Both the position numbers and the translations under genes were made by a program. From positions 52,576,001 to 52,640,000 of the forward strand of contig OX597819.1 in NCBI GenBank assembly GCA_951406725.2: a DNA stretch of 64,000 nt. The letters run 5' to 3'. Position 1 is the first letter of the stretch. The number at the start of each line of letters is the position of its first letter. Source of the stretch: Octopus vulgaris (lineage: Eukaryota). The notes beneath the pieces were generated by a model, which saw nothing but the letters and a program-made list of their open reading frames with translations, did no database searches and was not told where the DNA came from. Shown here piece by piece: positions 8,268-60,764 of this stretch.

Positions 8268-8420
8268 ATCATCATTGTTTAACATCTGCCTTCCATACTG
8301 GCATGGCTGGGATGGTTTGACAGACAGCAGCCAGGCAGAAGCCAGCACCAGACTTCTGTGACAGTTTTGGCACGATTTTTACAGCTACATGCCCTTCCTA
8401 ACACCAACCACTCAGCAGAT
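8268..8420 (-). mobile_element. RTE-type LINE 3' tail fragment with (GAT)n end
   Basis: CATCATTGTTTAACATCTGCCTTCCATACTGGCATGG...GCCCTTCCTAACACCAACCACTC matches the LINE 3' end at 58071-58230. Confidence 0.7.
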
Positions 8421-35640: not shown

Positions 35641-36053
35641 AGTATGCAGAGTTATTTCAGCCCAAAACTGAAAGTAAGCCATAGATTCTGCTCTTAGAAA
35701 ATTTTCTTCTATAAGGCAGGCATTAATAGCGCTCAGACTGGGCCAAAACAGATCATTCAAATAAGCATAAGAATATTTTGTCCACTGGACAACATGCAAC
35801 TGTGTAAGGTATAAAAATGAGCTATTGTTAACCCCAAGTTGCTTCCTGATTGAATAGAGGAGCTATGATCCAGTGGACAACTATTTTGTGTATCTACGAC
35901 TTGATTGTCCAAAGTTATACCATTTTAAATGGTTTGGTGTGATATGAAGGCAATTTGGTTGCTATTTCTAGAAGATTGAGCAATGACAGTATCAGTTTTA
36001 CTTTTAAGTTCATGAACAAGTGACTCAACCTGATCAGTTCACCATCGTTTGTG

Positions 36054-36382
36054 ATCATCATCATCATCATCATTTAGCGTCAGGCTTTCCATGCTAGCAT
36101 GGGTTGGACGGTTCAACTGGGGTCTGGGAAGCCAGAAGGCTGCACCAGGCCCAGTCTGATCTGGCAATGTTTCTACGGCTGGATGCCCTTCCTAACGCCA
36201 ACCACTCCATGAGTGTAGTGGGTGCTTTTTACATGCCAGACGAGGCTGGCAAATGGCCATGGTCAGATGGTGCTTTTTACATGCCACCGGCACAGGGGCC
36301 AGGTGAGGCTGGCAACGGCCACGATCGGATGGTGCTTCTGTCAAACAGCCACAGTCGGATGGTGCTTTTTATGTGCCACCGT
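36054..36382 (-). mobile_element. RTE-type LINE 3' UTR fragment with (GAT)n tail and internal GGTGCTTTTTA repeats
   Basis: Homologous to 58071-58290. Confidence 0.8.
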
Positions 36383-50371: not shown

Positions 50372-51640
50372 CAGAGGTTGGACAAAATAATGGAAACACC
50401 TAGCATCATAGCATGATAATTTTGAAATATCTATAAAACCGTCAATAGCTTGCTTATTTTTGTTTTGTGATTTATTATTAGTGTTGCTTAATATGTTTTG
50501 CTAAAATTGCTGTTTCTTTTCAGATATTATCAGAAAAAGGTAATTAAAATTCATTAAAATGACAGATCTATCAGACTTTCAAAGAGGTCAAATTGTTGGT
50601 GCTTGTATGGCAGGTGGTAGTGTAATGAAAACAGCCAAAATGTTTGGGATATCAAAAAGTACTGTCTCAAAAGTAATGACAGCCTTTGAGAAAGAGGGAA
50701 AACCCTTCTTGTTGAAACAAAACTCCAGAAGAAAACCAAAACTTTCAGAGGGACCATCAGATTCTTACATAAATTGTTAGAAAGCATCACAAAAGTACAG
50801 CTCCCAAAATTACTGCAGAGCTTAATGACCACCTCGACAACCCAGTTTCCACAAAAACTGTTTGCCAGGGGCTGCACAAAGCTGGATTTCATGGGAGGGC
50901 TGCAATCAGAAAACCACTACTTTCAAAAGCAAACGTTGTAAAGCATTTAGAGTGGATTAAAAACCTACAGAATTGGTCCCTGGAGCAGTGGAAGAATGTT
51001 ATTTCCTCAGACAAGTCATCCTTTATCTTATTTCCGACCACTGGCCGAGTATACGTGTGGAGACAGCCAAAAGAAGCATTTGACCCAGACTATCTTCTTC
51101 CAACTGTTAAACATAGAGGAGGATCTGTGATGACCTGGGGACTATATCTTGGAAATCCGCTAGCCCAATGGCTTCCCTTCATGGCAGAATTAATAGTCAA
51201 GACTATTTAAGCATTTTATCTGATCAAATTCATCCTGTGGTTGCGGAACTGCTTCCGGAGGGAAACGCAATCTTTCAGGAAGATAATGCACCAGTTCACA
51301 CAGCTAAAGTTGTTACTGAATGGCACGAGGAACATTCTAGTGAAGTTGAACATCTTATCTGGCCACCACAGGCTTCAGATCTCAATATTATTGAACATTT
51401 ATGGTGCATTTTAGAAAAAAAAGTAAGGAGTCAATATCTTCCACCATCATCACTACAAAAAATAGGAAACTGTTTTAGCTGAAGAATGGACAAAAATTCC
51501 TTTGGAAACAATTCAAACTTTGTATGAGTCCATACCTCATAGAATTCAAGCTGTAATTACAGCCAAAGGCAGTTGTACCCCCTATTAAAATAAATTTGTT
51601 TGAAATTTTAGGGTGTTTCTTTTATTTTGTCCAACCCCTG
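50372..51640 (+). mobile_element. Tc1/mariner DNA transposon, full length (1269 bp), DD36E type
   Basis: TA target duplication. 29-bp TIRs: CAGAGGTTGGACAAAATAATGGAAACACC and, as reverse complement, CAGGGGTTGGACAAAATAAAAGAAACACC (26/29 identical). Internal decayed transposase. Confidence 0.95.
50559..51588 (+). pseudogene. Tc1-like transposase, frameshifted with an in-frame stop
   Basis: HTH N-terminus MTDLSDFQRGQIVGA..., then VISSDKSSF (first D), PTVKHRGGSVM, FQEDNAPVH...SDLNIIEHLW and C-terminus ...AKGSCTPY*. AATAAA follows at 51589. Frameshifts near 50750, 51140 and 51460. Confidence 0.92.
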
Positions 51641-56557: not shown

Positions 56558-58070
56558 CCACACATATCTATACTATATATACATATATACATATATATGT
56601 ATACACACATATACATATGTATCTATCTATATGTGTGTGTGTTTAGCAAACATATATGTGTATGTGATAGAAACAAGAGTGAATAATAAACATAGTATAT
56701 ATAAAAAGCAAGTATATCAGTGAATGTCTATAAATGTGTGTGTGTGTGTGTTTGTGTACTTGGGTTGTGTGTGCATGTACATGTAGACTGAAGATTTTGA
56801 ATAAGATAGCAGCAGGTCACAGCAGTAACTGGTCCATGATGTAGCATCAAATATGGCAAAAAGAGAAGTACAGAGAGATAGAGATAGATACAGACAGAGA
56901 GACACGGACTCCTTCCTTAGAATCTTTCATCATGTGTGTGTATGTGTATCACATGGATGAATGTGTGTGTGTGTGTGTTAGAAAGAGAGAGAGACAGAGA
57001 CAGAAAGAGAGTTTTACATTGTCACTCAGTCTCTCTCTCTCTCCAATAATAACTATGAAGATTTCTTAGCCAAGTCTATAAGGTCTTGGATATTTTTTGC
57101 AGTGCAGTGAAAAGAGGTGATGCAGGTGGAATATCAGTGGATTTGTTTTTAGGTCTAGTAGTCATGATGGTGGTGGTAGTTAGTAGTTGTAAGGTGGTGG
57201 TGGTGGTGGTGGGGTTTAGTAGTTTAGTAGTAACAGTAGTAGTAGTAGTAGTAGTAGCAGCAGATATCTTCTGAAGAAGGCATAAGGATAATAATGATGG
57301 TTTCAAATTTTGGGATAGGACCAGCAGTTTGAGGGGAGGGGGAAGCCAAGTACATCGCCCCCAGTACTTCACTGGTACTTATTTCATCGAAACCCCACCC
57401 ACCCAAAAAAAGGATGAAAAACAAAGTTGATTTAAATTGAATGGCAGATGGACAAATAGGCAGACGGATGGTCAAATGGATAGAGTGACCAACAGGCATA
57501 TGGTCAGAGAGAGAGAGAGTTGGTTTGATGAATAGTTAGACAAACAGACAGCCAGTTTGATGGACAGACAGATAGACAGATGGCCAGAATGACTGACAGA
57601 TGAACAGACAAGTGGTTCGATGGACAGACTGTCAGACAGGTATAGAAGAGGTCAGATGGTGAGACAAATAGACAGATAGGGTATCAGATGTACTGACAAC
57701 CAGACAGGTAGATAACCTGAGGAACTGACAGACAGTTGGATAATCGGTCAGATACATGAGGACCAATGGTAAGACTGGTACATTCACTACAGAATAAACT
57801 TTGCTTGTTGTGACTATCTAGACCCAGACCAATCCCAATCAAACAGATGACCTATCCAGCAAATACATTCCAGCCATGACTATTCCATTCTCTTTGTCTG
57901 GAATCTATTTATCTTATGTTCAAACCAAGCCAGATCCAGCCTCTCACACCTATCCTACAATGTCAATCTAAAAATATACAATCACATCATTGAAATCTCA
58001 AAGCTATGAGGAAATGCAATGATTAATTAAAAGCAGTGTGATTAAATAAGCATCACATTTCATAAAGTAA

Positions 58071-59793
58071 TCATCATCATCACCATCATTTACTGCCAGT
58101 TATCCATACTGGCATGAGTTGGACAGTTTGACCAAGGCTGGCAAGCTGGAAGGCTGCACCAGACTCCAGTCTGATTTGGCATGGTTTCTACAGTTGGATG
58201 TCCTTCCTAACACCAACCACTCCAAGAGTGTAATGGGTGCTTTTATATGCCACCAGCATGGGTGCCATTTGTGTGACACCAGTATCTGCCATGACTGATT
58301 TTGCTCAGCTTGATGTGTCTTCTTCTCAAGCACAACATAATGCCAAAGGTCTTGGTCATTGCCTCCATGAGGCCAAACACTCGAGCCAAAGGTCCTGGTC
58401 ATTGCCTCCATGAGACCCAACACTCAAAAGGAGCTCATCCACTTTGCCTTCATGAAGCCCAACACTCAAAATGTACTTCAAAGGTCCCAGTCATTGCCTC
58501 CATGAGGTCTATATCTGCCATGGCTGCAATTTTGCTCAGCTTGAAGGGTCTTCGTCTGAAGCATGACATAATGTCATTGCCTCTGAGAGGCCCAACACTC
58601 AAAAGGAGCTCAGCCACTTTGCTTCCATGAGGCCTAATACTTAAAAGGTGATTCAACGGTCTTGGTCATTGCCTCAGTGAGGCCCAACGCTCGAAAGGTG
58701 CTTTTTATGTGCCACCAGCACAGGTGCTAGTTACACAACACCAGCATCAACCATGACTGTGATTTCACTCGGCTTGACAGGTCTTCTCAAGCACAGCATA
58801 TCACCAAAGGTCTCGGTCACTAAACATTACCTCTGTGAGGCCCTTCACCACCTCGTCCCATATCTTCCTGGGTCTACCTCTACCACAGATTCCCTTCACA
58901 GAGATCGCATTTCTTTACACAGCTATCCTCATTCATACGCATCACATGATCATACCAGAGCAGTCGTCTCTCTTACACACCACAGCTGATGCCCCTTATA
59001 CCTCATTGAACATGCACACTGACACTGCACATCCAGCGAAGCAGACTGGCTTCATTTCTTTCAAGCCTATGCATGTCCTCAGCTGTCACAGCCCATGTTT
59101 CACTGCCATGTAGCACACAAACATCATACAATCTGCCTTTCATTCTGTGAAAGAGAGAGGCCCTTTGTTGCCTGCAGTGGTATGAACTCTCTAAACTTTG
59201 CCCAGCCTAATCTTATTCGCACAGCTACACTCTCAGAGCATCCACCTCCACTACTAACTAGGCCACCAAGATAATGGAAGCTATCTATTACCTCTAGCTT
59301 ACCCAGCTGGCAGTTGATGGAGTCTATTTTCTGTACATTTCCAGGGTTTAATGTACCTGTGCATTTTCCACATACAAAAGCTACTTTTCCTGTTAAGTTT
59401 CCTCTGATATTACTGCACTTTTTATATGTCCAAAGCTTACACTGGGTGCATCTTATGGAGTTTCTACTTATGCCTTTTCTATAGATTGAGCAGGGCCATC
59501 TACCTGAAGAGATTTGCGATTTGTCTGCCTTCCTACTTACTATGACTTTGGTTTTTGCAAGGTTAACTCTAAGGCCCTTCAATCCTAGACCCTGCTTCCA
59601 TACCTGGAACTTTTCTAGTTTTGGTAGTGATTCAGCTATAAGAGGAAGGTCATCAGCAAAGAGGAGCTCCCAGGAGCAGCCTGTCTTAAATTCTTGTTAT
59701 TGCCAGGAGGACTATGATGAACACGTGGGGGTTGAGGACTGATCCTTGGTGAACCCCTACTTGTACCATGAATTCTGTGCTGTACTCATTCCC
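58071..59793 (-). mobile_element. 5'-truncated RTE-type non-LTR retrotransposon
   Basis: Minus strand shows RT motifs GVHQGSVL(N)P, LLFADD, GLRVNLAKTK and FHYLG; C-terminal LHGSETW, LLRWMC and GRGRPRKIW; repetitive 3' UTR; (GAT)n tail at about 58071-58090. Confidence 0.9.
58770..59793 (-). pseudogene. Reverse transcriptase ORF, C-terminal half, frameshifted, with PHD-like insert at 59361-59492
   Basis: Includes track ORF 59124..59582. FADD at 59649-59660 and GVHQG at 59743-59757. Confidence 0.88.
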
Positions 59794-60764
59794 TTACTTG
59801 GGTCCATGAATAAATTTTGCTTCTATATGTATTAATTGCAAGAAACAGCAACTTCTTTAACATTTTACATGTTTAACATTCTTTAACATTTTACACTGAA
59901 ACATATTCTCTTAGAGAGTGCAATTGCAAATCCCACACAAGTGAACATGTGTAAAACAATACAAGAGTTTTGAAAGACATATATATATCTACAAAGCTAG
60001 TTTTTAAATATCAAGTGGCTCCAGTGGCAGGGGTGGGTTTCCACCAGATTTGAATAGTAATCAAAAGAGTCCATAGATGAAAAATAGCTGAGACCCACCA
60101 TTGTAGAAGGTCTTTGTGGTAGCAGGATACAGAAACAGTAGGGGTGAACCACAGTAGAGTCTCTGAGGAAAACAGAGACAAAAACCCCTCCCACTGACAT
60201 CTCCATGATGCTGGACTTGACTATACCAACAACAATAATGGTAATTTCTTCCCATGAAGCACACTAGAAGGAGAGGAATACAGTCTGGTGGGAAACAACT
60301 GCAACATAAGACTGCTATCTACTTTGTTTTATGTTCTATTACTTTAATGCTTCACCTGCTAACAATAATGGGTTTAGCAAATGCCGTTAACCAATGAGCC
60401 AAGAAGGGTAGGTACAGGTTGAGCAGTCACTAGACCCGCTAGAAACAGCAGCCAAATCTCCCTCAAATCATACTTTATTCAAAACAAAGCAAAGAAAAAA
60501 AATGAAAGGATGCACTCACTGGTTTTGGATAAGGTATTAATCTGGGATACATTAATTTTAAGACAATTTTGTTTTTAAATGAAAAAAAGAAATATATATA
60601 TATATAAAAGACAAGATTGCCATCCCTGGAACATGCTTGATTGTAGTGTTTGATCAGGAGGTGAGTTGGAGGCAGACAATGAAGTAGATAGTAGCAACAA
60701 TTAATGTTAACATTATCTCAAAGCAAGACATGTAGGAAATTAGTGTGTGTGTATGTGTGTAGAC

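Follow-up and report, generated by a model that had tools for sequence, protein, structure and literature searches.

A true C4HC3 PHD finger, closest to that of Pygopus, lies inside the reverse transcriptase (RT) of a large RTE-type LINE lineage, where it is a family trait. Both the identity of the domain and its position are near certain. The copy that was analysed lies in the window, by which we mean the whole 64-kb stretch (64,000 nucleotides) of Octopus vulgaris DNA under study; this copy is dead, and the PHD claim concerns its family. With regard to function, we favour, at a probability of roughly 45%, the reading that the finger would serve as a target-chromatin docking module of the RT, with its basic surface on upstream DNA and its pocket on methyl-lysine.

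On the minus strand, positions 59127-59696 of the window form a stop-to-stop frame of 190 residues that carries RT motifs 5, 6, and 7. Codon-by-codon translation revealed the pattern C59492-x2-Y59483-x10-C-x2-C-x4-Y59426-x2-C-x14-C-x2-C59361, confirming exactly the motif that an earlier note on this DNA had claimed between LRVNLAKTK and FHYLG. Both tyrosines (59483 and 59426) are encoded by TAT, a tryptophan stands two residues upstream of the second, and W-P precedes the first cysteine. A relaxed version of the pattern matched once in the six frames of the 64-kb window and in 0 of 200 codon-shuffled versions of 58001-60000. Translation, profiles, sister contigs, and a structure model together assign 59361..59498 (minus strand, like all parts of the element below) to a Pygo-like C4HC3 PHD finger (W-P-C ... 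C-x2-C) in which two zinc ligands have become tyrosine. The window copy itself scored 14.9 bits against Pfam PHD, below the cut-off of 24. Translation and alignment place the catalytic RT motif 5 at 59649..59660; it reads FADD in the window copy and YADD in 204/204 aligned relatives. RT motif 6, LRVNLAKTK (59547..59573), is the upstream anchor of the insert, as seen from translation and from the alignment of the family profile with Bombyx R2 (R2Bm), which extends across motif 6 up to R2Bm residue 668. The end of the motif-6 strand and a variable linker entering the PHD follow at 59499..59546 (mean top-residue share 0.45, P0187 residues 779-792). A second variable linker leaves the PHD at 59280..59360, together with the beta-hairpin preceding motif 7 (mean top-residue share 0.36, P0187 residues 839-860). 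RT motif 7 was located by translation and the family alignment at 59265..59279; it is FHYLG in the window copy and mostly FCYLG in relatives.

The remainder of the element confirms its decayed state. Searches by tblastn with P0002 and P0187 recovered the 3' part of a single RTE open reading frame (ORF) at 58768..59793, from RT motif 4 to the C-terminus, in four pieces across frameshifts, with additional stops and small deletions. The copy is 5'-truncated near 59790, within RT motif 4, and the depth of sister contigs collapses past 59787. Self-comparison and sister contigs identified 58090..58767 as a 3' untranslated region (UTR) enlarged by local duplications, and some sister contigs join approximately 58697 straight to approximately 58221, skipping some 475 bases. 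Several imperfect local duplications of 40-150 bases were observed within this UTR at 58283-58720. On its 3' side the element likely ends in an (ATG)n simple-repeat tail at 58070..58089. No convincing target-site duplication was found for the window copy, the best flanking repeat being 7 AT-rich bases, and no second copy of the RT region was found elsewhere in the 64-kb window. The 3' end of the element (58090-58260) recurs in the window at 36051-36380 and 8292-8413. Contig depth over this 3' end is far above that of the RT region, which would be expected of a tail shared with a very common SINE or short derivative. Elsewhere in the window, two overlapping plus-strand frames of 145 and 121 residues (50773-51482) carry motifs that resemble those of a frameshifted Tc1/mariner transposase.

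To read the two tyrosine positions in sister copies we used contigs of four public runs (X1, X3, X5, and X9); the values below weight each contig by its depth and do not represent numbers of copies. X5 may be an RNA run but is not taken as a sign of expression. The letter that yields TGT (Cys) at 59482 made up 97.1, 96.4, 98.7, and 98.9% of contig depth in X1, X3, X5, and X9, respectively, and at 59426 the letter giving CAT (His) made up 95.0, 93.8, 99.3, and 98.0%. Cys and His also stand at these positions in the three long relatives spanning this part of the RT: Octopus bimaculoides P0001 (71% identical to the window copy), P0002 (66%), and P0003 (37%). A fourth match, P0004, covers only the part downstream of the finger. 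Because sister copies read Cys and His (94-99% of depth in 4/4 runs), the two tyrosines of the window copy are the result of decay, and the restored C4HC3 pattern is the one that the earlier note had derived from the Tyr codons.

Several lines of evidence identify the insert as a PHD finger, which had also been suggested from the window copy. Two of the long relatives passed the Pfam PHD cut-off (P0002, 24.7 bits; P0003, 25.5 bits) and P0001 was just under it (22.5 bits); in a second set it was passed by 5/10 intact relatives (P0039, P0143, P0031, P0032, and P0034). When a profile of 21 relatives was compared with solved structures, the top matches were Pygopus PHDs (2vpe and others, E = 3.6e-6 to 6.5e-6). 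An AlphaFold model of a 134-residue relative had a pLDDT of 93-96 across the finger, the zinc itself being absent from the model. This model matched PHD fingers of TAF3, BPTF, and Pygo, and in a comparison with 48,161 chains its top six rows had Z 5.0-5.7; the matches included the BPTF PHD (Z 5.7, rmsd 3.6, 55 aligned residues) and the Drosophila Pygo PHD (Z 5.5, rmsd 2.4, 50 aligned). These fold scores are modest, with a best Z of 5.7, a best Foldseek E of 0.017, and no Foldseek match at 0.001. Each of the eight C4HC3 ligands is kept in 97-99% of 204 aligned rows. A RING finger (C3HC4) was rejected because the His is the fifth ligand, and a C1 domain (H-x12-C-x2-C) was rejected on Pfam C1 matches that were partial and below cut-off. 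An apparent subfamily with Tyr in place of His (15/137 rows) proved to be mostly an alignment artefact: 15 of 19 rows read again contain H-Y-K-K/E-C and keep the His. In other relatives (P0014, P0015, P0016, P0018, P0019, and their close kin, P0017, and L014) the spacing from the His to the following Cys is longer by one or two residues; these H-x3-C and H-x4-C subfamilies keep all eight ligands.

A search with the 190-residue query yielded 2783 representatives at E ≤0.001 and 635 at E ≤1e-10. The relatives inspected were the best 150 of the 2783, and weak matches may be RTs without the finger. With a query that contained the finger, an intact motif followed YADD in 119 of the 120 best matches. 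A control query without the finger (RT residues 470-760) gave an intact motif in 114/120. Of the six misses, four are proteins that stop or change frame within the finger, one shifts frame ahead of it, and one is a deletion that also takes out parts of motifs 6 and 7; no clean loss of the finger was found among these 120 nearest relatives. The alignment rows are clusters at 90% identity that are related to each other, and are not to be counted as independent events.

Full-length members have one ORF of about 1030-1100 residues, comprising an APE endonuclease, the RT with its PHD, and a thumb. Three proteins of more than 1000 residues contained both the Pfam endonuclease and RVT_1. The six complete metagenome loci (L001, L002, L003, L006, L007, and L008) each carry one long frame of 1076-1097 residues, and simple repeats begin within approximately 12 bases of the stop in all of them except L007, where none was seen. 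Tails differ between members ((TGA)n, (TGAG)n, or (TTG)n), and the 3' UTRs of several full-length members are very short. The single APE endonuclease-RT ORF and the simple-repeat 3' ends bear out the earlier assignment of the element to the RTE type. A full-length model (pLDDT 88, pTM 0.79) had human L1 ORF2p as its best match, and both the endonuclease and RT folds of L1 were matched.

PHD-bearing members have few named hosts: Octopus, two Branchiostoma species, the catfish Neoarius, and the nematode Acanthocheilonema. Further records, one to four for each group, come from atlas clusters of Mollusca, Cnidaria, and Nematomorpha. No relatives were found in viral contigs or in a first genome scan. 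PHD-LINE matches in bacterial metagenome-assembled genomes (MAGs) are best read as contamination: PHD-bearing or close LINE ORFs in such bins (L081-L086 and P0455) are likely host or other eukaryotic DNA. A decayed, PHD-less RTE-like RT (L080, 1501-3099) was observed in a record filed as an Alicyclobacillus plasmid (NZ_CP104070.1), which is almost without annotated genes and is likely eukaryotic contamination. In three public gene models (P0001, P0004, and P0461), pieces of the LINE are fused to a LETM1-domain protein, a myosin, and slc22a21; these are exonised pieces or gene-calling errors.

The placement of the finger inside the RT, between motifs 6 and 7, was confirmed in the window copy and in the family. 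The gap between these motifs is 87-108 residues in the PHD family, compared to 20-36 residues in the 9/13 PHD-less rows in which it was measurable; in the PHD-less L031 the loop is 29 residues. The finger thus adds approximately 60 residues, carried on linkers of approximately 12 residues each. Modelling predicts a normally folded RT to which the two linkers attach the PHD as a domain of its own. An insertion at the same place is known from the RT of R2. In R2Bm, loop 6a (residues 672-677) reads an upstream target motif and its deletion blocks nicking (PMC10499050, in part), and in bird and turtle R2 the loop is wedged into upstream DNA (PMC12180492, in part). By sequence alignment and analogy with R2, the motif 6-7 site of the RTE protein would, while target-primed reverse transcription proceeds, face the DNA on the upstream side of the nick. 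In R2, 6a is a short DNA-reading loop of a site-specific RLE element and is described as unique to R2, whereas the present family has a whole zinc-finger domain at this site, in an APE element without known target specificity.

In a tree without named RTE references, the PHD family formed one group (100/100) with the PHD-less L031 and L080, apart from the other LINE-like RTs. By their architecture, we presume L031 and L080 to be RTE elements. Two trees based on RT motifs 1-6 (62 and 39 rows) both placed L031 inside the PHD group. With a longer alignment from which the insert was removed (24 rows), the PHD group formed one side of a branch, with a support of 58/99 and 54% of bootstrap trees. 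A single gain of the PHD would fit this longer alignment; a gain followed by a loss would fit the position of L031 in the motif 1-6 trees. PHD fingers in CR1/L2 elements also match Pygo best (2vpb and 3zpv are often the best structural match; PMC4120745, in part), which makes capture of the PHD from another LINE plausible.

The chemistry of the finger was compared with that of the Pygopus PHD, with which it has in common the C4HC3 spacing, a start of aromatic-P-C, and the pocket residues V, A/S, I, and W. The Pygo PHD contacts K4me2 with Y341, V350, D352, A356, and W366; I357 and E360 are also needed, E360 for H3K4me3 binding, and the binding face is negative (PMC2726290, in part). In 204 relatives, the positions of Y341, V350, A356, I357, and W366 are occupied by [YFW] (85%), V (90%), S/A (97%), I (91%), and W (97%), respectively. 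All five are kept together in 162 of 199 fingers, and in the 204-row alignment the pocket positions are as conserved as many RT residues while the linkers drift. The hydrophobic cage of a Pygo-type reader is thus present; its acidic residues and negative face are not. Asp or Glu occurs at the positions of Pygo E349, D352, and E360 in 1, 3, and 5 of the 204 relatives, respectively, where the register at D352 is uncertain, the family loop being two residues shorter than that of Pygo. Loop 2 is shorter as well, and the EVND acidic motif is absent together with E360. The finger is net positive in 198/199 cases (median 8 basic and 2 acidic residues), whereas the surface of the Pygo finger is acidic. 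The basic charge and the lost acidic residues speak against H3 binding that simply copies the Pygo type, and the finger was not assigned as a plain Pygo-type H3K4me reader.

According to the docking model, the basic surface of the finger likely holds target DNA upstream of the nick, and its groove likely takes a methylated histone lysine, e.g. H3K4me as extrapolated from Pygo. The expected outcome would be that insertion or nicking is loosely biased towards chromatin that is marked and open, without sequence-specific targeting. Conservation of the pocket and the match with the R2 6a site favour, by analogy, the target-DNA or chromatin side over RNA. Several points weigh against the model, the modest fold scores among them. 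The H3 tail may be repelled by a basic finger, given that the Pygo finger depends on E360 and has a negative face; the path of the DNA may differ in R2, an RLE-type element; and transposition as such does not require the finger, since close PHD-less relatives exist, namely L031 (34% identical over its full length) and L080. The net charge in 198/199 fingers, the loss of the Pygo acidic residues, and the location at the R2 6a site would also suit a finger that only clamps DNA, gripping the target upstream of the nick as 6a does, without reading a histone mark. Full-length proteins end soon after the thumb without a further Pfam domain, and the clamp would perhaps take the place of a C-terminal zinc knuckle, which is missing from these RTE proteins. 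We hold this alternative possible though doubtful, as it leaves unexplained the joint retention (162/199) of the aromatic, Val, Ser/Ala, Ile, and Trp groove. The groove Trp is probably dispensable for the PHD fold.

A conserved pocket without the H3-type acidic contacts could also point to a non-histone peptide, from a host partner or from the element's own protein, that recruits or gates the enzyme. PHD-peptide structures with such ligands (PHF2-VRK1 and MLL4-TET3) were among the fold matches. However, no shared histone-like motif was seen by eye in the N- and C-termini of the full-length proteins, and a host partner would need to occur throughout the range from cnidarians to fish, as histones do; this explanation is unlikely. 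Binding of the element's own RNA (its 3' tail or template), which would confer cis preference, draws on the basic surface and on the very short 3' UTRs of several members, which imply that recognition from the protein side must be compact. We consider it quite improbable, given that the corresponding R2 site faces upstream DNA and that the tails vary among members while the finger is conserved. It is very improbable that the finger is a passenger which the element tolerates, having been captured a single time and persisting only since deletions break the RT fold. In favour, PHD-less relatives transpose, L031 has an open 1022-residue frame, and its position within the PHD group in 2/3 trees would mean a clean loss. 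Against this, conservation reaches 90-99% at surface residues as well as zinc ligands, in contrast to the drifting linkers, and the 120 nearest relatives contain no case of clean loss.

The element shares with RTE-clade LINEs (RTE-1 of C. elegans, SR2, and SR3) a single ORF for APE endonuclease and RT of about 1000-1100 residues and a short 3' UTR ending in simple repeats (PMC1291365, in part). It differs from them in the approximately 60 extra residues that form the PHD between motifs 6 and 7; none is described in the part of that paper seen. The occurrence of PHD fingers in ORF1 of CR1/L2-type elements, mentioned in the earlier note, agrees with PMC4120745 (in part). There, in Jockey-group elements, the PHD is in ORF1, or N-terminal in ORF2 or in the single ORF, whereas the family described here carries it inside the RT palm of an RTE-type element. 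The CR1/L2 PHD was proposed to help target the host genome, and the 2014 survey knew, in the part seen, of no functional study of any LINE PHD (PMC4120745). Among tethers of mobile elements, the PHD of RAG2 is likewise a reader domain on an integration machine (PMC3520747, in part). RAG2, chromovirus, and LEDGF/HIV tethers all serve DDE recombinases or integrases, while the PHD of this family is part of a target-primed RT. Chromovirus chromodomains and LEDGF with HIV integrase act as reader tethers of mobile elements.

A PHD inside an RTE reverse transcriptase was not found described in the open full-text literature, a search to which Repbase, Dfam, and key reviews are external; it was absent from the parts seen of PMC9115989, PMC9004415, PMC11203168, PMC3520747, PMC10294476, PMC5786205, and PMC13708176. 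The pair RVT_1 and PHD is plain in automatic annotations, and a brief prior mention is therefore quite possible. RTE-2_OV of Octopus vulgaris is described with a C2H2 finger and no PHD, and by that description we take it to be a different family. For O. bimaculoides, an active and polymorphic RTE that carries the label RTE8BF6ALB, an amphioxus RTE-8-like consensus, has been published with a table of insertion sites (PMC9115989 supplement 1, in part). If RTE8BF6ALB is PHD-bearing, this table permits a first targeting test.

How APE-type LINEs choose insertion sites beyond the weak preference of their endonuclease is an open question. In this family the elements have a single ORF and many intact copies, the PHD belongs to the catalytic protein, and a close relative without the PHD is at hand, which makes the targeting question directly testable with point mutants. 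RTE proteins are under development as gene-insertion tools (PMC13708176, in part), and the 60-residue insert that occurs naturally in the RT palm points to a site where a targeting domain is tolerated. We tentatively suggest, with less confidence than for the docking model itself, that an old and widespread lineage of animal LINEs may carry a working histone-mark reader in its RT palm that aims target-primed reverse transcription by chromatin state, and that the motif 6-7 loop may be a general plug-in site for targeting modules (6a in R2, the PHD here), which would be open to engineered readers in RTE gene writers.
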